Positions 5,684-29,441 of a stretch of 45,349 nucleotides of DNA are shown here, piece by piece (the stretch's first letter is position 1; each line of letters begins with the position of its first letter). The notes under the pieces are model-generated. The model saw only the letters and a list, made by a program, of their open reading frames with translations. It was not told the origin of the DNA and searched no databases. A program made the position numbers and the translations under genes. This DNA is from an uncultured bacterium (lineage in GTDB: Bacteria > Cyanobacteriota > Vampirovibrionia > Gastranaerophilales > Gastranaerophilaceae), in the NCBI GenBank assembly GCA_900553845.1, contig USEW01000001.1, positions 1-45,349 of the forward strand, given 5' to 3'.

Positions 5684-5814
5684 TAACTAGAGTCTGGCAA
5701 TATATGAAATAAACTAGTACAATGATTGGACTTGGTTTTAATAGAGTGGGGGAATATATGAAAGAAACCAGGATAATGATTGGACTTGGTTTAATAGAGC
5801 GAGGGAATATATGA
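5684..5814 (+). repeat. 53/54-bp leader-unit repeats: one partial, one degenerate, one intact. The last mini-ORF (5758-5814) overlaps the kdsA ATG by ATGA.
   Basis: ATGs at 5704, 5758 and 5811 (spacing 54 and 53). Unit 2 reads MKETRIMIGLGLIERGNI*. Same family as 7388-7690 and 11340-11410. Confidence 0.8.
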
Positions 5815-6632
5815 AAAAAGTAAAATTGAATGATTTTGAAATAGGCGGTGATAGACTAACAATAATGGCTGGACCTTGTGTCATAGAAAGTGAAGATATT
5901 GTATTTAAAACGTGTGAATTTTTAAAAGAGCTATGCTCTAGTCTTGATATAAACTTTATTTTTAAATCTTCGTATGATAAAGCAAATAGAAGTTCGATAA
6001 ATTCATATCGCGGGCCGGGTATTGATAAAGGACTTGAAATTTTAAGTAAGGTTAAAAAAGAATATGATGTTTCTGTAGTAACGGATGTACATATGCCATC
6101 TGAGGCTTTTATTGCGAAAGAAGTGGCAGATGTGATTCAGATCCCGGCTTTTTTGTCGCGTCAAACTGATTTGCTTGTGGCGTGTGCTAAAACCGGGCGT
6201 GTTGTTAATATAAAAAAAGGTCAGTTTTTATCACCATATCAGATGAAAGAAACAGCAAAGAAAGTATCTGATTCAGGAAACGACCGTATTTTAATAACAG
6301 ACAGAGGTGTTTCGTTTGGTTATAATAACCTTGTAGTTGATTTTCGTTCAGTGCCAATAATACAGGAAGATTTATGTTATCCGCTTATTTTTGATGCAAC
6401 ACACAGCGTACAGCTTCCTGGTGCAAATGGTAAAGATTCTGGTGGTGAAAGAAGATTTGTGCCGACTCTTGCTAAAGCGGCTGTTGCAGCCCAAGCTAAA
6501 GGGCTTTTCTTTGAAGTTCATCCAAATCCAGACTGTGCATTATGCGATGGGGCAAATATGATTGATTTCAAAACTGCCTCTGAGTTGTTTAAAGTAGTGA
6601 ATGATATTTATAAACTTGTTAATAAGAAATAA
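5811..6632 (+). CDS. kdsA: 3-deoxy-8-phosphooctulonate (KDO8P) synthase
   Basis: 273 aa carrying IFKSSYDKANRSS, QIPAFLSRQTDL and DATHSVQLPG, which are typical KdsA signatures. Confidence 0.9.
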   Translation: MKKVKLNDFEIGGDRLTIMAGPCVIESEDIVFKTCEFLKELCSSLDINFIFKSSYDKANRSSINSYRGPGIDKGLEILSKVKKEYDVSVVTDVHMPSEAFIAKEVADVIQIPAFLSRQTDLLVACAKTGRVVNIKKGQFLSPYQMKETAKKVSDSGNDRILITDRGVSFGYNNLVVDFRSVPIIQEDLCYPLIFDATHSVQLPGANGKDSGGERRFVPTLAKAAVAAQAKGLFFEVHPNPDCALCDGANMIDFKTASELFKVVNDIYKLVNKK

Positions 6633-6643
6633 AAATAAAATGA

Positions 6644-7393
6644 TTATAAACTATAAAAAACAATTGAAGCTGCAACAGAGAGGTTTAAAGATTCAACTTT
6701 ATTTTTCATTTTTATAGTAAAAAATTCATCTGCAGCCGTAGAAAGTTCATTACTTAATCCAGTGGCTTCGGAACCAAACATTATTATTTTTTTGTCTTTG
6801 AACTTTATTGTTTCCAAGCCAACATTTGTATCTACTTTTGTTGCATAAAACTTGTGTTCGGAAAATATTTCTTTGAGTGTTGGCAGGTCATTAATTTTTA
6901 CAATTGGTATCTTTAAAAAATTTCCTACTGAAGAACGGATAACTTTTGGGTTATAAATATCGATTGTATCCCCATATAAAATAATTCCTTCCACACCAAA
7001 TGCGTTTGCACTTCTTAATATTGTACCAAGGTTGCCAGGGTCTTTTATATTTTCAAAAAGAGCTATTGTTTTTTTGTTTTTTAAATCATTTATATTATAA
7101 TCAACTGTGTTAAAAACAGCAACACTTTTTGAAAAAGAATCTGTAGTTGAGATTTTTTTTAAGATATTTTCATTCACAATTATGAGTTTGGAATTTTCAA
7201 CAAAATCAAATTCTGGCACTTTTGAAGAATGTATAAAGACATTGTCAGCTTTTAAGCCAAAGGAATATGCATCATAAATAGCTTTAAACCCTTCTACAAC
7301 AAACTTTTTATGATTTTCACGGTATTTTTTACTGTTTACTAATTTAACAACATGTTTAATTTTTTCATTATCTTTGCTATTTATCTCTTTCAT
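6644..7393 (-). CDS. TrmH/SpoU-family RNA 2'-O-methyltransferase (RlmB-like)
   Basis: 249 aa with the SpoU motifs NPGNLGTILRSA, FGSE..GLS and SLNLSVAASI. Confidence 0.8.
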   Translation of the reverse strand: MKEINSKDNEKIKHVVKLVNSKKYRENHKKFVVEGFKAIYDAYSFGLKADNVFIHSSKVPEFDFVENSKLIIVNENILKKISTTDSFSKSVAVFNTVDYNINDLKNKKTIALFENIKDPGNLGTILRSANAFGVEGIILYGDTIDIYNPKVIRSSVGNFLKIPIVKINDLPTLKEIFSEHKFYATKVDTNVGLETIKFKDKKIIMFGSEATGLSNELSTAADEFFTIKMKNKVESLNLSVAASIVFYSL

Positions 7394-7690
7394 AAATTCC
7401 CCTGTTCTATTATACCAAGTCCAATTCTTGTTTTACATTATTTCATAAATTCTCCAGATCAATTAATTCAAGTTCAATCAAAGTGTAGGTTTCTTTCATA
7501 AATTCCCCAGCTCTATTAATTCAAGTCCAATCAAAGTGTAGGTTTCTTTCATAAATTCCCCAGCTCTGTTAATTCAAGTCCAATCAAAGTGTAGGTTTCT
7601 TTCATAAATTCCCCTGTTCTATTATACCAAGTCCAATCAATGTGTAGGTCTTTCATAAATTCCCCAGCTTTTGTATTAAAGTCCAATCGG
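7388..7690 (-). repeat. tandem array of ~53-bp leader units directly upstream of, and in phase with, the TrmH-family start codon
   Basis: Minus-strand ATGs at 7656, 7605, 7552, 7499, 7446 and 7393 (spacing 51, 53, 53, 53, 53). Each is preceded by GGGGAATTT. The mini-ORFs read MKETYTLIGLEL(T/I)ELGNL*. Confidence 0.9.
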
Positions 7691-7935
7691 TGGTTTACGC
7701 TTCCCGCTCCTGTGGAGTTTTCTTCGAAAACACCTCTGTTCGCTGGTACCAAATTATTTGGCTTGTCACAATCCTTGCATCACGTTACAGGCTTCGCCTT
7801 TCACTTCGACGGATTGTTCCAAGTTACGGGCTCGCTCGCATTCGCTCGACTGTGCCCTACCAAAAATTTGACTCTGCACTTTTGCGCCTGCTGAGCCGCA
7901 GCCGCTCAAGTGCTGCGCTTTGGCTTACGCTTCTT
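7681..7935 (-). repeat. GC-rich module of the leader-element family (candidate structured RNA or 5' leader)
   Basis: A ~250-bp GC-rich block in AT-rich DNA. It shares segments with 10951-11290 in the opposite orientation (GAAAACTCCACAGGAGCGG.AAGCGTAAACCACCGATTGGAC; CGAAGTGAAAGGC.AA.CCTGTAACG; GAGTCAAATTTT). Confidence 0.7.
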
Positions 7936-9577: not shown

Positions 9578-9697
9578 AAATTTAATTAAACCATAAAATT
9601 AAAAAATGTAACAATTTTTTTCGAAACTAGCAAATTATTTTATGTTGAGATGTTATGTAAATGGAACCATGTAAATAGCAGGAACATTATAATATTT

Positions 9698-10213
9698 ATG
9701 AAGATATCTAACTTTTTTTTAAAACATATGCCGCAAATAAATATAAAGAAAGATTTTATAAAGAAAACTGTTGATTTTTGCGATCAACATGTATCATCTC
9801 CACAGCAGCGTCTTGCAATAGGTGTTACAGCTCTTTTAACTCAGCCGTTAATTGACTATTTTAATAAAAATGTTGATGAAAAAACGCGTGATATTTCTGT
9901 TCAAAAAACTATTGCAAAAACAATTGTTGGAATGACAACAGGATATTTTATACGTGACTGGTGTATTAAATTATCAAATGCAAAAATATTTAAACCTGAT
10001 ATAAAAGATATTCCAGCTGATAAGTTAAAAAATTATCATAACGCAATGGGGACTTTTCTTGCAACGATAATAATGTTAGGAACGAATTTTTTAATTGATG
10101 CTCCTTTAACGGCACTTTTAACAAATGGCATAGCAAAACCTTATGATGCAATAAAAAAACATTTTTCAAAACAAAAACAACCTCAAAAGTCGGTTATAGA
10201 GGAGGTTAAGTAG
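9698..10213 (+). CDS. hypothetical membrane protein
   Basis: The ORF opens at 9650; ATG 9698 (MKISNFF) is preferred. It has predicted TM segments and no recognised family. The gene immediately downstream has similar architecture. Confidence 0.5.
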   Translation: MKISNFFLKHMPQINIKKDFIKKTVDFCDQHVSSPQQRLAIGVTALLTQPLIDYFNKNVDEKTRDISVQKTIAKTIVGMTTGYFIRDWCIKLSNAKIFKPDIKDIPADKLKNYHNAMGTFLATIIMLGTNFLIDAPLTALLTNGIAKPYDAIKKHFSKQKQPQKSVIEEVK

Positions 10214-10215
10214 AT

Positions 10216-10881
10216 ATGAGTTTAAAAAATATATTTGAAAAAGGTAAACAATTTTTATATAAGCAGTTTTCAGAAGGTGGTGGAAACATGCTTATCTGGA
10301 TGGGTGCCTTAGGCTGGTTCACATCTGCTATTGCGCAGGTTGTTGTATTAAATTTAAATAAAAAAATACCGAAAGAAGAAAAAGGATTTTTAATAAGACA
10401 GGAAATAGCTGATGGAGCTGTCAACTGTGGAATGTACCTTGGGTTTACAAAATTGGTTCAGACCTGTGTGAACTGGGGGTTAGAAAAAGGAAAAATAACA
10501 AGTGATACAATAAAACCCATTGTTGAAAAAGCAGCAAAAGATAAAAAAATCGAACTTTCAAAACATTTTGAAAAAAGTAACATATCGGATTTATTGAAAG
10601 ACAACGTAGATGATCTTGCTAAATTTAAAAAATTTAAAAACGGTGTCGATATTTTAACAAATTTAATAGCATCCGTTATAGCTTGTAATATTGTAACTCC
10701 CCTTGCACGTAATTATATTGCTTCAAAATGGTCAAAAAACAATAAAAAACAAAATCCTGCTCCTACAGTTGAAAATAATATAATTATAAAACCAAAACCT
10801 GAAAGTAATATAGTTTTTAAAGGAAGAGCAAATATAAATCCGTATACTCAAAGTGTAAGAACAAATCCTATTTCAATATAG
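10216..10881 (+). CDS. hypothetical membrane protein
   Basis: 221-aa ORF starting 3 nt after the previous stop, with an SD GAGGAGG upstream. It has hydrophobic segments and no recognised family. Confidence 0.55.
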   Translation: MSLKNIFEKGKQFLYKQFSEGGGNMLIWMGALGWFTSAIAQVVVLNLNKKIPKEEKGFLIRQEIADGAVNCGMYLGFTKLVQTCVNWGLEKGKITSDTIKPIVEKAAKDKKIELSKHFEKSNISDLLKDNVDDLAKFKKFKNGVDILTNLIASVIACNIVTPLARNYIASKWSKNNKKQNPAPTVENNIIIKPKPESNIVFKGRANINPYTQSVRTNPISI

Positions 10882-10950
10882 TCTTTAAACCTAGCGTGCT
10901 ATAGATTTTACTTTAATTAACATAAATATTTTTGTTTTTGTTTTATAATT

Positions 10951-11290
10951 AAAAGCGTAAGCCAAAGCGAGTTTGTAATTTTGTCTGACGCGAAGGCGGC
11001 AGCGAAATACAAACGGAGCCTATGAATGAGCGACGTAAGAGTTTTAAAGAAAACTCCACAGGAGCGGAAAAGCGTAAACCACCGATTGGACTTATTCGCC
11101 AACAAGCGGGGGGAATGCGTGAAAAAAGCGTAAGCCGTGCGGAGTCAAATTTTGACAAGTGCGCCGTGCGTGCTTGAAAAACTCACCTAGCACGAAAGTT
11201 CGCAGCAATCTGCCGAAGTGAAAGGCAAACCCTGTAACGGAATGCAAAAATTGCAAGTTGTCAATAATTTGAAACAAACGTGCAAAGAAA
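10951..11290 (+). repeat. GC-rich mosaic module of the leader-element family upstream of dnaB
   Basis: Three copies of AAGCGTAA(G/A)CC (10953, 11070, 11127). It shares blocks with 7681-7935 in inverted orientation, but the blocks are permuted. Confidence 0.7.
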
Positions 11291-11339
11291 ATTATAATGA
11301 AATGAGTTTGGATGCCACAGGTGGATAAAAGATGTAATA

Positions 11340-11410
11340 AAGCGAGGGAATACATGAAAGAAACTTACATTCTGGTTGGACTTGATTTAATAAAACGGGG
11401 GAATATATGA
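11340..11410 (+). repeat. single 53-bp leader unit. The mini-ORF 11354-11410 overlaps the dnaB ATG by ATGA.
   Basis: Reads ATGAAAGAAACTTACATTCTGGTTGGACTTGATTTAATAAAACGGGGGAATATATGA = MKETYILVGLDLIKRGNI*. ATG 11354 to dnaB ATG 11407 is 53 nt. Confidence 0.8.
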
Positions 11411-12753
11411 AAAAAGAGAAAGTGACAAAACTTCCGCCACATAATAAAGAAGCCGAAGAATCAATTTTAGGAGCAATTCTTGTCAATCCGGTTGTTTTAA
11501 ACAGAATTGTAGAATATATAAAACCAGAAAGTTTTTATTTTAAAGCTCATAAGGTTATTTATGAAACCATGCTTAATTTGTATAATAGAGGAAATGTGCA
11601 GATTGATATTTTAACAGTATCCGATGAATTAAGAAATCAAGGGGCATTGGAGGCTGTTGGGGGTCGTGATTATATAAACGATCTTGCATTAAATACGATA
11701 ACAACTGCCAATATTGAATACTATGCAAAAATGATTCAGGAGAAGTCAATAAAGCGTCAACTTATTGCAGCAGGGTCGGATATTGTTGAAATGGCATATG
11801 ATAATTTGACAACAGAGGCTACACTTGATACAGCGGAAAAACTTATCTTTAATATAGCTCAGGAGCGCACAACAACAGATTTAATTGCAATAAAAGATCT
11901 TGTATTAACAAGTTTTGAACAGATTGAATATCGTTATAACCATAGAGATGAACTAACAGGTACATCAAGTGGGTTTTATGATTTGGATGAAATGACATCA
12001 GGCCTTCAAAAATCGGATTTGATTATTTTAGCGGCACGTCCATCAATGGGTAAAACAGCATTTGCATTAAATATTGCACAAAATGCTGCATTACGTGACA
12101 ACAAACCTGTTGCTATATTCTCTCTTGAGATGCCAAAAGAGCAGCTAGTAAAACGTATGTTATGCTCAGAAGCTGAAGTTGATACCCAAAGGCTAAGTTC
12201 AGGCAATATGCAACCAAAAGACTGGGAAAAATTAACCGAAGCCATGAATTATTTTACCGATGCCCCGATATATATTGATGACGCAGCAGGTGCTTCTGTT
12301 ATGGATATACGTGCAAAATGCCGCCGGTTAGCCATGGAAGAAAAACAATTGGGCTTAATTGTAATTGATTACCTTCAGTTGATGGAGGATAATTCAAAAG
12401 GCGATGACCGTAACCAGCAAATATCAGCCATATCTCGAGGGTTAAAGACACTTGCCCGTGAACTTCAGGTGCCAATTATTGCCTTGTCCCAGCTATCTCG
12501 TGCTGTTGAACAACGAAAAGATCGCCGTCCTATGTTGTCTGACCTTCGTGAATCAGGCGCAATCGAACAAGATGCTGACGTTGTTATGTTTATTTATCGT
12601 GATGAATATTATGAAAAAGATAATCCTGAAAATAAGGGTAAAGCAGAAATTATTATAGCAAAACATAGAAACGGACCGGTTGGCAGTTTTGATTTACTAT
12701 TCCAGGCAAATATTACAAAATTTAAGAATCCTGCTCGCACTGCTACTTTTTAG
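11407..12753 (+). CDS. dnaB: replicative DNA helicase DnaB
   Basis: 448 aa with the N-terminal PPHN.EAE.S.LG motif, Walker A ARPSMGKTAF, and IVIDYLQLM and SQLSR motifs. Confidence 0.95.
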   Translation: MKKEKVTKLPPHNKEAEESILGAILVNPVVLNRIVEYIKPESFYFKAHKVIYETMLNLYNRGNVQIDILTVSDELRNQGALEAVGGRDYINDLALNTITTANIEYYAKMIQEKSIKRQLIAAGSDIVEMAYDNLTTEATLDTAEKLIFNIAQERTTTDLIAIKDLVLTSFEQIEYRYNHRDELTGTSSGFYDLDEMTSGLQKSDLIILAARPSMGKTAFALNIAQNAALRDNKPVAIFSLEMPKEQLVKRMLCSEAEVDTQRLSSGNMQPKDWEKLTEAMNYFTDAPIYIDDAAGASVMDIRAKCRRLAMEEKQLGLIVIDYLQLMEDNSKGDDRNQQISAISRGLKTLARELQVPIIALSQLSRAVEQRKDRRPMLSDLRESGAIEQDADVVMFIYRDEYYEKDNPENKGKAEIIIAKHRNGPVGSFDLLFQANITKFKNPARTATF

Positions 12754-15385: not shown

Positions 15386-16939
15386 CTATTTTTTACTTAA
15401 AGTCAAAATGTTATTTGAGTCTTTATTTTTGATAAGTAGTCTTTTATTTTTATAGCAATACATAAAGTAAAAAACTACGCCCAACAACAGCCATATTGGA
15501 AATAGAACTGAAGATATCTCCAAAAATTTCATTGAATACAGCATCAATCCGCCGCTTAAAATTATACCCAATATTGGAAATAAAGGTGAAAAAGGAACTT
15601 TAAAAGGACGATGACGATTTGGTTCTGTTTTTCTTAAAATCAAAACAGCTATACAAACAATGATAAATGATGTGAAAGTTCCAAAATTGCACAATTCCGC
15701 CGACACTTTTAAATCCATAAATAAAGAGCCAATTATAACAAGTGTTCCACATAAATACGTTATAACATGGGGTGTATGAAATTTTGGATGTATTTTTTTT
15801 AAAAAAGGCGGCAAAAACCCATCCCGACTCATTGAATATATAATACGAGTAGTTCCTAATTGGTACACCATTATAACAGAGCTTAATCCGGTTAATGCAC
15901 CTATTGAAATTAATCCTGCAACCCAATTTTGATTTATATACATCATAGCTTTAGCAATTGGCGCATGGATATCAATCATAGTTTGCGGCATTATACCTGT
16001 TAAAACAAGCGCTACAAGAACATATATAGTAGTACAAATAAGCAAAGTTCCAAGAATACCTATTGGCAAATTCTTTTGCGGATTTTTTGTCTCCTCAGCA
16101 GCCGTTGATATTGCATCAAAACCAACATAAGCAAAGAAAATAATAAAGGCTCCCATTGTGATCGCTCCAAAACCATTTGGACAAAATGGCACCCAGTTAT
16201 GAGGTTTTACATAAAACATACCAACTCCAATAAATAGAAAAATAACAGCAAGTTTTACAAATACCATAAAACCCGCAACTTTAGTTGATTCTTTTACCCC
16301 GCGAACAAGTATTAGTGTCACAGCAACAAGCAGCAATATAGCTGGTAAGTTTATTGAAAAAGGTATTAAATTAAAAAGTTTTGGAATAACCAAATCAGGA
16401 TTCAAATTTGACTTTTGACATACTTCAACTGCGCTTCGATAGTCGTTAACAAGCCATATCGGAGGATTAAGCAACCAGTTTGGAAGGAATGGAAAACCTT
16501 TTAAAAATTGTAGAAAATAGTCAGTCCACGCACAAGCAATAGTAATATTTCCGACTGCATATTCAAGCATCAAAATCCAACCTACAATCCAGGCTGCAAA
16601 TTCTCCCATTGTTGCATAAGTATATGTATATGCACTTCCTGAAACTGGCATCATTGAGGCAAATTCGCAATAACAAAAAGCGGTAAATACACAAGCTATT
16701 GCGGCTAAAATCATTGACAAAACAACTGACGGTCCTGCTCCAAATTCTGGTGTTGAGCCAACAGCTGCAATACCAATAATTGTAAATATACCTGTTCCTA
16801 CAACAGCACCAATTCCTAATATTATTAAATCAAAAGCATTTAAATTTTTCTTTAATTTTGAATTATTTGACTCTTGTATAAATTCATCGGCTGTTTTTTT
16901 TGATAGTAAATTATTAATAAATTCTTTTATTTTTTTCAT
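15386..16939 (-). CDS. APC-superfamily amino acid permease (cationic amino acid transporter-like)
   Basis: 517 aa, polytopic, with a conserved SAYTYTYATMGEFAAWIVGW block. It is a tandem paralogue of the upstream gene. Confidence 0.8.
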   Translation of the reverse strand: MKKIKEFINNLLSKKTADEFIQESNNSKLKKNLNAFDLIILGIGAVVGTGIFTIIGIAAVGSTPEFGAGPSVVLSMILAAIACVFTAFCYCEFASMMPVSGSAYTYTYATMGEFAAWIVGWILMLEYAVGNITIACAWTDYFLQFLKGFPFLPNWLLNPPIWLVNDYRSAVEVCQKSNLNPDLVIPKLFNLIPFSINLPAILLLVAVTLILVRGVKESTKVAGFMVFVKLAVIFLFIGVGMFYVKPHNWVPFCPNGFGAITMGAFIIFFAYVGFDAISTAAEETKNPQKNLPIGILGTLLICTTIYVLVALVLTGIMPQTMIDIHAPIAKAMMYINQNWVAGLISIGALTGLSSVIMVYQLGTTRIIYSMSRDGFLPPFLKKIHPKFHTPHVITYLCGTLVIIGSLFMDLKVSAELCNFGTFTSFIIVCIAVLILRKTEPNRHRPFKVPFSPLFPILGIILSGGLMLYSMKFLEISSVLFPIWLLLGVVFYFMYCYKNKRLLIKNKDSNNILTLSKK

Positions 16940-18498
16940 ACTTTTGACTCTATTTCGTTAATCTTTTGGTTATCATTTCCGTCTTTCAGTTTATTAAGTT
17001 CATTTTTACGATTAACCTGATAACCGTAACTAAAATATATTAACGCTCCAAATACAAGCCAAATTGGGAAAAGCAATCTAGAAGTTGTCAAAAATTTCAT
17101 TGAATAAAGCATTAAACCAGAACAACACACTATACCTAAAATAGGGAATAAAGGTGAAAAGGGAACTTTAAAAGGACGATGACGATTTGGTTCTGTTTTT
17201 CTTAAAATCAAAACAGCAACACAAACAATGATAAATGATGTGAAAGTTCCAAAATTGCACATTTCAGCCGCTATATTAATATTAAAAAATAATGATCCGA
17301 AAATTATACAAGTACCCACAAATATAGTTATAACATGAGGAGTTTTATATTTGCTATGCACTTTTTGAAAAATAGCAGGTAAAAAATTATCCCGGCTCAT
17401 AGCATACAAAACACGAGTTGTAGCAAGATATAAAACAAGTAATACAGAAGATAGCCCTGTTAAAGCGCCCAAAGAAATAAGTCCTGCAACCCAGTTTTGT
17501 CCGACAAGTCTCATAACATGAGCTATTGGAGCGTGAAGATCTATTTGATTTGTCGGTATCATACCTGTTAGAACAAGCGCTACAAGAACGTAAATAATTG
17601 TACAACATAATAATGATCCAATAATGCCTATTGGCAAATCTTTTTGAGGGTTTTTAGCTTCTTCGGCTGTTGTAGCAATGGCATCAAAGCCTATATAAGC
17701 AAAGAAAATGATAAATGCACCCATAAATATACCGCTAAATCCGTTTGGTGCAAATGGCACCCAGTTTTCAGGCTTCACATAAAAAGCACCTGTAATAACA
17801 AACATCATTATAACGCTTATTTTTATAAGCACCATAAGTGAAGCCATTTTTGTCGACTCTTTTATACCTTTAACTAAAATACACATCAATACTATAGCCA
17901 TTAATATTCCAGGAAGATTTAATGAAATTGGAATAGCGCCCAAATGAGGTATTTCATCAAAAGGATTTAACCCATTTTTTTCACAAAAAGCAAAAGCACT
18001 TTGATAGTCACTTATAAGCCAAATTGGCGGGTTTGTTATAAATTGTGGCAGAAAATGGAAACCTTTTAGGAACTGAATAAGATAACCTGTCCAGGCACTT
18101 GCTACAGCAATAAATCCAATAGCATATTCAAGAAGAAGCACCCAGCCGACAATCCAGGCTGCAAATTCTCCCATTGTTGCATATGTATACGTGTATGCGC
18201 TTCCCGCTACGGGTATCATTGAGGCAAATTCTGAATAACATAAAGCTGAAAAAATACAAGCTATTGAAGCAATAACCATTGAAATAACCAGCGCTGGACC
18301 GGCACCAGGTCCTTGAGCGCCACCAGCTGCTGCTATACCAACAACCGTGAAGATTCCTGAACCTATAATAGCTCCTACACCTAACATTACTAAGTCAAAT
18401 GCTGTTAATGTTTTGTTTAAACCTGCTTTTTTGGCATTTTCTATCATTTCGTCAGGATTTTTTATTTTAGTAATATTTTTAAATAAATTTTTCAACAA
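16936..18498 (-). CDS. APC-superfamily amino acid permease (paralogue)
   Basis: 520 aa in the same family. Its stop overlaps the start of the downstream paralogue (ATGA-type junction at 16936-16939). Confidence 0.8.
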   Translation of the reverse strand: MLKNLFKNITKIKNPDEMIENAKKAGLNKTLTAFDLVMLGVGAIIGSGIFTVVGIAAAGGAQGPGAGPALVISMVIASIACIFSALCYSEFASMIPVAGSAYTYTYATMGEFAAWIVGWVLLLEYAIGFIAVASAWTGYLIQFLKGFHFLPQFITNPPIWLISDYQSAFAFCEKNGLNPFDEIPHLGAIPISLNLPGILMAIVLMCILVKGIKESTKMASLMVLIKISVIMMFVITGAFYVKPENWVPFAPNGFSGIFMGAFIIFFAYIGFDAIATTAEEAKNPQKDLPIGIIGSLLCCTIIYVLVALVLTGMIPTNQIDLHAPIAHVMRLVGQNWVAGLISLGALTGLSSVLLVLYLATTRVLYAMSRDNFLPAIFQKVHSKYKTPHVITIFVGTCIIFGSLFFNINIAAEMCNFGTFTSFIIVCVAVLILRKTEPNRHRPFKVPFSPLFPILGIVCCSGLMLYSMKFLTTSRLLFPIWLVFGALIYFSYGYQVNRKNELNKLKDGNDNQKINEIESKV

Positions 18499-28416: not shown

Positions 28417-29282
28417 ATGGCTAGTGACAAAGTAAGAATAGATGTGCAAGGTGAAAGTATTGCAATATTAAAGGTTAACGATGATGATTATATCTCATTA
28501 ACAGATATGGTGAAAGGTTTTGAAGGTCAAGGTGCTTTAATTGAACAGTGGCTAAGAAACAAGGATACACTTCTATTCTTGGGAACTTGGGAAACTTTAT
28601 ATAATGAGAATTTTAATTCCCTCGAATTCGAGGGAATTAAAAATGAGGCTGGTAGAAACAGTTTCTATATGTCTGTTAAAAAGTGGATTGAATTAACTAA
28701 TGCTAAGGTATAATATCTCAAGCTGGTAGATATGGGGGAACTTTTGCTCATAAAGACATAGCCTTTGAATTTGGCTCATGGCTTAGTCCTGAATTTAAAC
28801 TATATCTCATTAAAGAATTCCAACGATTAAAGTTAGAAGAAAATGAAAGAAAGTCTCTTGATTGGAATCTGAATAGAACTCTTTCAAAGATTAACTACAG
28901 AATCCATACAGATTCTATTAAAGAAAACCTAATTCCTCACAAATTAACCAAGAAAGAACAAAACGGTACATACGCAAGTGAGGCAGATGTTCTTAATATT
29001 GCTTTGTTTGGCAAGACTGCTAAACAATGGAGAGAACAAAATCCTGATGTAAAGGGAAATATTAGAGATTATGCCACGATTGAACAACTTCTTGTATTGG
29101 CTAATATTGAAAGTTTCAATGCTGAGCTTATCAGACAAAATATACCACAAGGAGAACAATTAAAAGTATTAAATGATATGGCTATAAGTCAATTAAAATC
29201 ACTGTTGGCTAGTAATGTAGCTAAGAAATTAACAGTTAAAGGAAATATACCTTTAATAGAATACAAAGAAGATAAAAACTAG
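28417..29282 (+). pseudogene. KilA-N domain protein, one -1 frameshift near 28705-28715
   Basis: The N-terminal ORF ends ...ELTNAKV*. The next frame continues GIISQAGRYGGTFAHKDIAFEFGSWLSPEFKLYLIKEFQRLK, a KilA-N hallmark. Confidence 0.7.
28611..28642. repeat. 32-bp perfect palindrome TTTTAATTCCCTCGAATTCGAGGGAATTAAAA (copy 1, inside kilA-N)
   Basis: Read directly from the sequence. It is centred on GAATTC, and a second copy lies at 29389-29418. Confidence 0.9.
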
Positions 29283-29388
29283 TTGTACGCTCAAATCGTA
29301 CAACTCAACCGGTTACAAAGAGTAACCGGTTGACTACAAATTGAAGTCAACCGAATTGTACGAAATAGTCGTACACTTGAAGAGGAAA

Positions 29389-29418
29389 TTTAATTCTCTC
29401 GAATTCGAGGGAATTAAA
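29389..29418. repeat. second copy of the palindrome (one arm mismatch), 24 nt upstream of the res start
   Basis: Reads TTTAATTCTCTCGAATTCGAGGGAATTAAA. Flanking bases are also shared with copy 1, giving ~38 bp of similarity. Confidence 0.9.
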
Positions 29419-29441
29419 AAAAAGACAAAGGACAGGACTAA

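Follow-up and report, generated by a model that had tools for sequence, protein, structure and literature searches.

Mycobacterial interspersed repetitive units, or MIRUs, are repeats of 40-100 bp that occupy 41 loci in H37Rv, with copy number polymorphic at 12 of them (PMC2734929), and as minisatellites they are used for typing (PMC3635867). In PMC12548453, which cites Supply et al. 1997, the open reading frame (ORF) of a MIRU unit is described as coupled to the downstream start at -4, an arrangement that likely minimizes the impact on expression. Forms of 77 and 53 bp with promoter activity are found in the senX3-regX3 spacer (PMC4213456). Here, an array of comparable layout is described from an uncultured member of the Gastranaerophilales. 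The stretch analyzed (contig USEW01000001.1 of assembly GCA_900553845.1; 45,349 nt, hereafter the window) carries tandem units of 53 nt, each combining a Shine-Dalgarno (SD) sequence with a short ORF, directly upstream of trmH, and the same unit recurs before kdsA and dnaB. The array is probably (probability roughly 0.7) a copy-number-variable minisatellite, or variable number tandem repeat (VNTR), whose unit is a duplicated dnaB initiation region that was copied locally and is tolerated near-neutrally. MIRUs are the closest described elements and, by analogy of layout, the Gastranaerophilales element works like a MIRU. A preliminary description of the trmH array, made from the sequence alone, knew of no element with such an organization; this was wrong, as MIRUs precede it (PMC12548453, PMC2734929, PMC4213456).

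An Array of SD-ORF Units Upstream of trmH

Six ATG codons lie on the minus strand at 7656, 7605, 7552, 7499, 7446 and 7393, separated by 51, 53, 53, 53 and 53 nt, and the last of these is the start of trmH. The positions and spacings are as given in the preliminary description, and Tandem Repeats Finder independently returns a repeat of period 53 at 7386-7688 (5.8 copies, 83% matches, score 375). The interval 7394-7656 is made up of five contiguous units of 51, 53, 53, 53 and 53 nt, with a half-unit (7657-7688) ahead of them that had been missed, as had the further copies before kdsA and dnaB. The units follow one another with no spacers and, as was recognized at the outset, the array is not CRISPR-like (clustered regularly interspaced short palindromic repeats). 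The window contains 11 occurrences of the 16-mer GGGAATWTATGAAAGA, where shuffled sequence predicts 0.14, and a profile of the unit matches each copy with E = 1e-12 to 1e-19.

All units of the trmH array have ATGAAA at the 5' end and the SD-like sequence GG(G/A)GAATTT at the 3' end, and the SD lies 5 nt upstream of the ATG in every unit. A single sequence had been reported before each ATG; this holds for GGGGAATTT at the other trmH-side codons but not for ATG 7446, which is preceded by GGAGAATTT. The intact 53-nt units encode ORFs of 18 codons whose TGA overlaps the next ATG (-4). The mini-ORF peptides had been read exactly, and the 51-nt unit does fuse in frame to the next one. The chain of ATGA overlaps was thought to lead into the trmH start codon. 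It is present at the internal junctions of intact units but does not reach the gene: with nothing but MK* encoded, the proximal unit terminates 44 nt short of the ATG at 7393, and the chain is therefore broken before trmH. The start codon itself is confirmed by array-free orthologs with equal length and N-terminus.

Copies of the Unit Upstream of kdsA and dnaB

A profile built from 11 units was run over the 45-kb window. It matches only at trmH, directly upstream of kdsA (5704-5810, plus strand) and directly upstream of dnaB (11354-11406, plus strand), and all of these matches fall within 6 kb. The three arrays are co-oriented with the gene downstream and end exactly at its ATG. The -4 overlap of stop and start is present at kdsA and dnaB, as at the internal junctions of intact units, and is absent at the trmH junction. 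For dnaB, the position of the start is supported by the conserved DnaB N-terminus MKKEK(T/V)TKLPPHN. Identity between units is 90-98% within arrays and 71-83% between arrays, a pattern typical of local amplification.

Could the unit simply be the usual start context of this genome? Other genes of the window have AGGAG-type SDs and lack the GATTGGACTTG block of the unit, which is therefore not a generic start context; a general promoter or SD motif of the genome is ruled out on the same grounds. Nor are the 53-nt units coupled to the stop codon of the gene upstream. The kdsA array sits in a divergent spacer, and between the aminopeptidase stop and the first unit of the trmH array there is a GC-rich module of ~240 nt, which supplies that stop instead.

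The kdsA and trmH genes are convergent, and their arrays (5688-5841 and 7363-7692) form inverted repeats with 71-86% complementarity that flank this 1.6-kb gene pair. Such inverted arrays could permit inversion, or gene conversion between them.

Origin of the Unit at the dnaB Start

The origin of the unit becomes visible when loci of the 90%-identity DnaB cluster (P0126-P0139), which takes in many Gastranaerophilales variants, are compared. At L031-L034, which encode an identical DnaB protein (P0132), dnaB is preceded by tandem units of 52 nt, ATGAAAAAAGAGAAAACGAAGGTTGGACTTGGTTAATGAAACAGGGGAAAGC. There are two of these at L033, four at L034 and at least three, with N-gaps, at L031 and L032. 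Each consists of the first 19 nt of the dnaB coding sequence followed by a 33-nt leader with GGTTGGACTTGG and an SD. Because it starts with dnaB's own first 19 nt, the 52-nt unit is a tandem duplication of the dnaB initiation region. L023 retains one decayed 52-nt unit, in which ATG has become GAG and 16 nt are identical to its own dnaB start, and L035-L038 have no unit before dnaB. The suggestion in the preliminary description of a slippage-amplified initiation cassette is borne out by this composition of the relatives' unit and by its variable copy number.

The 53-nt units of the window are collinear with the 52-nt form and contain one extra T (GGTTAAT to GGTTTAAT). The mini-ORF of the 52-nt form is MKKEKTKVGLG* (11 residues), and its TAA lies 16 nt ahead of the following ATG. 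With the extra T, this stop is lost and the period becomes 3n+2, and the ORF therefore runs to the next ATGA. The ATGA chain is therefore a derived trait of one lineage and not one that defines the family.

The repeats also affect annotation. Called DnaB lengths range from 448 to 479 aa, and those of 456-479 aa carry N-terminal extensions (for example, ...RRLDLVNETGES continuing into MKKEK). These calls exceed 448 aa because the gene callers place the start within the repeat or leader upstream and translate it in frame.

The neighbors of dnaB vary (9650-12753; L023-L038). In relatives they are nadB/nadC, and in the window species dnaB lies downstream of a 221-aa ORF, 4 kb from trmH. Judged from this comparison of neighbors, a rearrangement brought dnaB near both of the other array-bearing genes.

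A duplication of each gene's own start within the window was also considered and rejected: the 5' parts of the units are unlike the coding starts of trmH, kdsA and dnaB. The kdsA unit 5758-5810 (IMIGLGLIE) resembles KdsA residues 19-27 (IMAGPCVIE; 5861-5887) weakly and in frame. The unit compared with kdsA nt 51-77 gave a shuffle p of ~0.007 as one of nine comparisons, a result that is unproven and not convincing alone.

Table 1. Positions of the repeat units, host genes and GC-rich modules within the window.
Feature	Position	Strand	Remarks
Leading half-unit GATTGGACTTTAATACAAAAGCTGGGGAATTT	7657..7688	-	Leader and SD without the 5' ORF part; profile match to unit positions 17-59, E = 3e-6
Unit U1, 51 nt	7606..7656	-	In-frame fusion with U2 giving a 35-codon ORF that ends in ATGA; carries TGGTATAAT
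Unit U2, 53 nt	7553..7605	-	Encodes MKETYTLIGLELTELGNL*; stop overlaps next ATG (-4)
Unit U3, 53 nt	7500..7552	-	Encodes MKETYTLIGLELIELGNL*; -4 overlap
Unit U4, 53 nt	7447..7499	-	Encodes MKETYTLIELELIDLENL*; -4 overlap; present twice in assemblies L001 and L003
Unit U5, 53 nt, degenerate	7394..7446	-	ATGAAATAA = MK*; carries TGGTATAAT and GGGGAATTT, the SD serving trmH
TrmH/SpoU-family RNA methyltransferase gene, 249 aa	6644..7393	-	PF00588, PF22435
kdsA unit K1, 54 nt, degenerate (MK*)	5704..5757	+	Profile match
kdsA unit K2, 53 nt	5758..5810	+	Encodes MKETRIMIGLGLIERGNI*; stop overlaps kdsA ATG (-4)
KdsA-like gene, DAHP_synth_1 family, 273 aa	5811..6632	+	
Partial unit (3' end with SD) ahead of the dnaB unit	11332..11353	+	
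dnaB unit D1, 53 nt	11354..11406	+	Encodes MKETYILVGLDLIKRGNI*; stop overlaps dnaB ATG (-4)
Replicative helicase DnaB gene, 448 aa	11407..12753	+	In relatives, its initiation region is the source of the unit
GC-rich mosaic module, aminopeptidase gene to array	7689..7931	-	First bases supply the aminopeptidase stop (GCG TAA)
Paralogous GC-rich mosaic modules upstream of the dnaB unit	10950..11331	+	Internal SD and GTGAAAAAAGCGTAA (VKKA*), and a half-unit-like segment

Copy Number and Distribution

An identical TrmH is encoded on contigs of four independent metagenome assemblies that are 99.8-100% identical to the window, and the array is reproduced in them unit for unit. The number of trmH-array units is five in the window and L002 and six in L001 and L003. 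The extra unit is a near-copy of U4, and the two U4-type units differ by 1 base. L002 has a scaffold gap within the kdsA array, plus an additional unit, and N-gaps inside arrays are found in some scaffolds.

Larger differences are seen in a sister strain with 98% TrmH identity and ~96% DNA identity to the window. It has no full unit at trmH, where a half-unit directly abuts the ATG. At kdsA there are two units in L006 and L008 and one in L007, and at dnaB there is a half-unit only. Relatives with 71-73% TrmH identity, one of which carries the NCBI name Candidatus Gastranaerophilales, have a peptidase-trmH spacer of 38 nt, and the unit profile found zero matches in these 38-nt-spacer relatives. 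Differences in copy number between strains are robust.

Searches further afield returned little. Among GTDB representative genomes, the pattern TTGGACTTGN{13,15}GGGAATNTATGAAA gave one chance match in a Clostridiales metagenome-assembled genome, a single SD-ATG context with no repeat. A scan of JGI metagenomes gave one unrelated coding match and a scan of viral contigs zero unit matches, and blastn of the whole spacers against phages and plasmids found nothing. To date, all members of the unit family come from a few Gastranaerophilales species in gut metagenomes.

A Model for the Birth and Spread of the Array

The unit can be viewed as a leader of ~33 nt (GRTTGGACTTG and the SD-like GGGGAAT), an ATG and ~20 nt that would originally have been the first codons of dnaB. 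We propose that it originated when the dnaB start was duplicated in tandem in an ancestor of this Gastranaerophilales group, and that arrays grow and shrink through replication slippage or unequal recombination. In the window species, kdsA and trmH, which lie within 6 kb, would then have received copies of the unit from dnaB at their start codons; the route was probably ectopic recombination, with the common GGGGAATnTATGAAA microhomology as its anchor. Each unit could load a ribosome and give rise to a meaningless short peptide. With the 53-nt phase (3n+2), each intact ORF would end in the ATGA of the next start, and termination-reinitiation may pass ribosomes along. The intact 53-nt units all end at -4, the degenerate units all stop earlier, and no unit runs on into a gene. 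The real gene is therefore neither lengthened nor overrun when translation begins upstream. The repeat may thus be tolerated as near-neutral, or as mildly modulating expression, and because each gene keeps its own SD the former is probable.

Several points weigh against this model. In their 5' parts, the window units have lost any resemblance to dnaB coding sequence, and the route by which the unit would have reached kdsA and trmH is one that we infer. The genome is covered here over 45 kb, with the three arrays lying within 6 kb. Copy numbers derive from short-read assemblies, in which one-unit differences between near-identical assemblies could be assembly collapse. In addition, the persistence of GRTTGGACTTG across species hints at a function beyond that of a tolerated minisatellite.

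Alternative Explanations

The arrays might instead act as an adaptive, copy-number-tunable translation enhancer, i.e., a contingency locus in which stacked SD-ATG pads load ribosomes, reinitiation carries them forward and slippage sets the dose. Serial termination-reinitiation is plausible given an SD 5 nt before each ATG and -4 overlaps, and the ATGA overlaps do reach kdsA and dnaB. Arrays with copy-number variation persist in at least two species, and short coupled upstream ORFs (uORFs) can supply ribosomes to the downstream gene (PMC12548453). However, this serial coupling is not conserved across the family: the 52-nt relatives terminate 16 nt short of the next start, and at trmH the link is broken by the MK* unit, which stops 44 nt upstream. 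The sister strain copes with zero full units at trmH, the targets are housekeeping genes that do not obviously require phase variation, and each gene retains its own SD whatever the copy number. Such an enhancer is therefore considered unlikely. The same judgment applies to a portable initiation cassette that homes via SD-ATGAAA microhomology and whose copy number, set by slippage, tunes the output of the essential genes dnaB, kdsA and trmH in gut Melainabacteria. If this doubtful reading were true, the arrays would represent a minisatellite expression rheostat caught soon after its birth from a gene's own 5' end.

A tandem promoter array, in which an extended -10 (TGnTATAAT, ~7 nt before the SD) in each unit adds transcription starts, is also unlikely. 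The sequence TGGTATAAT of U1 and U5 resembles an extended -10 and is also found in the dnaB half-unit of the sister strain; the units at kdsA and dnaB carry TGGTTTAAT or TGATTTAAT, and the MIRUs of the senX3-regX3 spacer have promoter activity (PMC4213456). Against this, U2-U4 and the 52-nt relatives lack TGGTATAAT and have TGAATTAAY and TGGTTAATG, respectively, both poor as -10 hexamers, and a -35 element is absent. Within the trmH array a sigma-70 scan returns no promoter-like site, the nearest being a good site upstream of it (TTGAAA-17-TATAAT at 7974-7946), and a transcript made from such a unit would begin virtually at the SD.

The array RNA is unstructured. It folds no better than shuffled sequences (z = +0.77), and Rfam gives no match at the gathering threshold over the whole window and none at E up to 10 over both spacers. 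On these results a structured RNA, whether of the repetitive extragenic palindromic (REP), BOX or enterobacterial repetitive intergenic consensus (ERIC) type or a cis-regulatory RNA, was rejected. No terminator-like site was found on the sense strand of the array.

It is very improbable that the mini-ORFs encode a functional small peptide, or the leader peptide of an attenuator, although the ORF is open across 18 codons in 8 distinct units and these have the common pattern MKET..[IL][IV]GL.LI..GN[IL]. The eight intact 53-nt units have 5, 7 and 7 variable columns at codon positions 1, 2 and 3, and their pairwise single-nucleotide codon differences comprise 32 synonymous and 81 nonsynonymous changes. 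This substitution pattern has no third-position bias and no sign of purifying selection on the peptide, and a peptide function was rejected on these grounds. The conserved blocks of the unit (ATGAAAGAAAC, GRTTGGACTTG, TTAATAGAG and GGGGAAT) are conserved at all codon positions, which suggests constraint at the DNA or RNA level, or recency. In some units only MK* is left of the ORF, the product encoded by the 52-nt relatives is a different one of 11 residues, alternative RNA structures are lacking, and the concatenated mini-ORF and in-frame read-through peptides have no homolog among 5.8 billion proteins.

Least probable of all is an assembly artefact, a repeat mis-built by a short-read assembler as N-gaps within the arrays of some scaffolds and the difference of exactly 53 nt between the window and L001 (which has one extra near-identical unit) might imply: the array is real, with units that differ from one another recovered in the same order from four assemblies of separate samples, a kdsA array recovered in the sister-strain assemblies, 52-nt dnaB arrays in another species, and a divergence of 2-30% that lets most units be placed unambiguously.

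GC-Rich Modules and Other Repeats

The GC-rich module on the trmH side has 51% GC against a background of ~30% and ends in the half-unit. It changes the end of the aminopeptidase, which reads ...LIKEA* (AAA GAA GCG TAA) compared with ...LTK* in relatives. The sister strain has a 149-nt GC-rich version that spans exactly the distance from the peptidase stop to the trmH start. The modules (7689-7931, minus strand; 10950-11331, plus strand; L006 5846-6000) have blocks in common, with a recurring AGCGTAAGCC and a half-unit beside a start codon. Their hairpin potential is modest (z = -2.65, -0.85 and -1.42), with no Rfam match, and the 51-aa ORF called in the GC-rich module matched nothing but itself in a protein search. 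The modules may be a small mobile mosaic insertion, or else belong to the same repeat family as long variants. A CTCC-ACA-GGAG hairpin within them (7706-7718, plus strand; 11065-11053, minus strand) is followed by a T-run on the strand opposite trmH and dnaB, and scores as a weak intrinsic-terminator-like site for antisense transcription.

A different repeat of ~135 nt is present in two copies upstream of kdsA in a relative with 71% TrmH identity (L013 7567-8000). It contains AATTGGACTTCAACGC ... GAAGTCCGTCAT, has a ATTGGACTT core in common with the 53-nt unit, and its ends can pair. Elsewhere in the window, two copies (94% identical) of a 36-nt perfect palindrome, GAATTTTAATTCCCTCGAATTCGAGGGAATTAAAAA, at 28608-28643 and 29385-29420 flank a small ORF (29004-29282) and look like repeated hairpin or terminator elements. 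Two adjacent paralogous amino-acid permease genes at 15386-16939 and 16936-18498 (minus strand) are 76% identical over 300 nt and thus point to duplication of a gene in tandem.

Comparison with Known Elements

The likeness to MIRUs is one of layout. In both, tandem units within the 40-100-bp range, including a 53-bp class, are intergenic and co-oriented with the flanking genes, copy number varies between isolates, and the unit occurs at several genes. In both, an ORF within the unit is coupled at -4 to the downstream start, although here this applies to kdsA and dnaB and not to trmH. There are also clear differences. The MIRU ORF start overlaps the stop of the upstream gene, which the 53-nt units do not do; three loci are known here, within 6 kb, compared with 41 in H37Rv; and the 52-nt sister form lacks the -4 coupling. 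The dnaB origin is visible only in the Gastranaerophilales element, which belongs to Melainabacteria with ~30% GC, whereas MIRUs belong to Actinomycetota. Homology is implausible because of the different phylum and the ~30% GC.

Ordinary bacterial VNTRs or minisatellites are head-to-tail repeats of tens of bases that are used in multilocus VNTR analysis (MLVA) typing. The arrays described here resemble them in being strain-specific repeats with copy changes attributable to slippage or unequal recombination, but differ in that each unit is a full SD-ATG-ORF module in fixed phase, placed at three start codons. Stem-loop potential is the defining trait of pneumococcal BOX elements (boxA-boxB(n)-boxC), which have no fixed phase relative to start codons. 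A mosaic character is common to BOX elements and the present loci, here with GC-rich modules and then a short tandem module in variable number beside genes, but the array is unstructured and phased to start codons. Finally, in coupled uORFs and synthetic bicistronic designs a short ORF with its own SD overlaps the main start through ATGA and can deliver ribosomes to it (PMC12548453). The unit is built in the same way; the differences are that it is iterated up to five or six times and variable in copy number, and that its coupling is not conserved, as judged from the broken trmH link and the 16-nt gap of the 52-nt form.

Implications

In practical terms, the arrays are ready-made VNTR markers for typing Gastranaerophilales strains, and they cause errors in gene calling, as with the DnaB proteins called at 456-479 aa. 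A layout of the MIRU style, in which a phased mini-ORF ends on the start of the host gene, is not peculiar to mycobacteria, and probably originated independently in an uncultured gut lineage. In this lineage the birth of the element is still readable: the dnaB leader and first six codons were duplicated to give the 52-nt form, and an extra T would have turned it into the 53-nt form, which then came to lie at two further genes. These loci therefore offer a concrete model of the way in which elements like MIRUs may arise and come to be tolerated.

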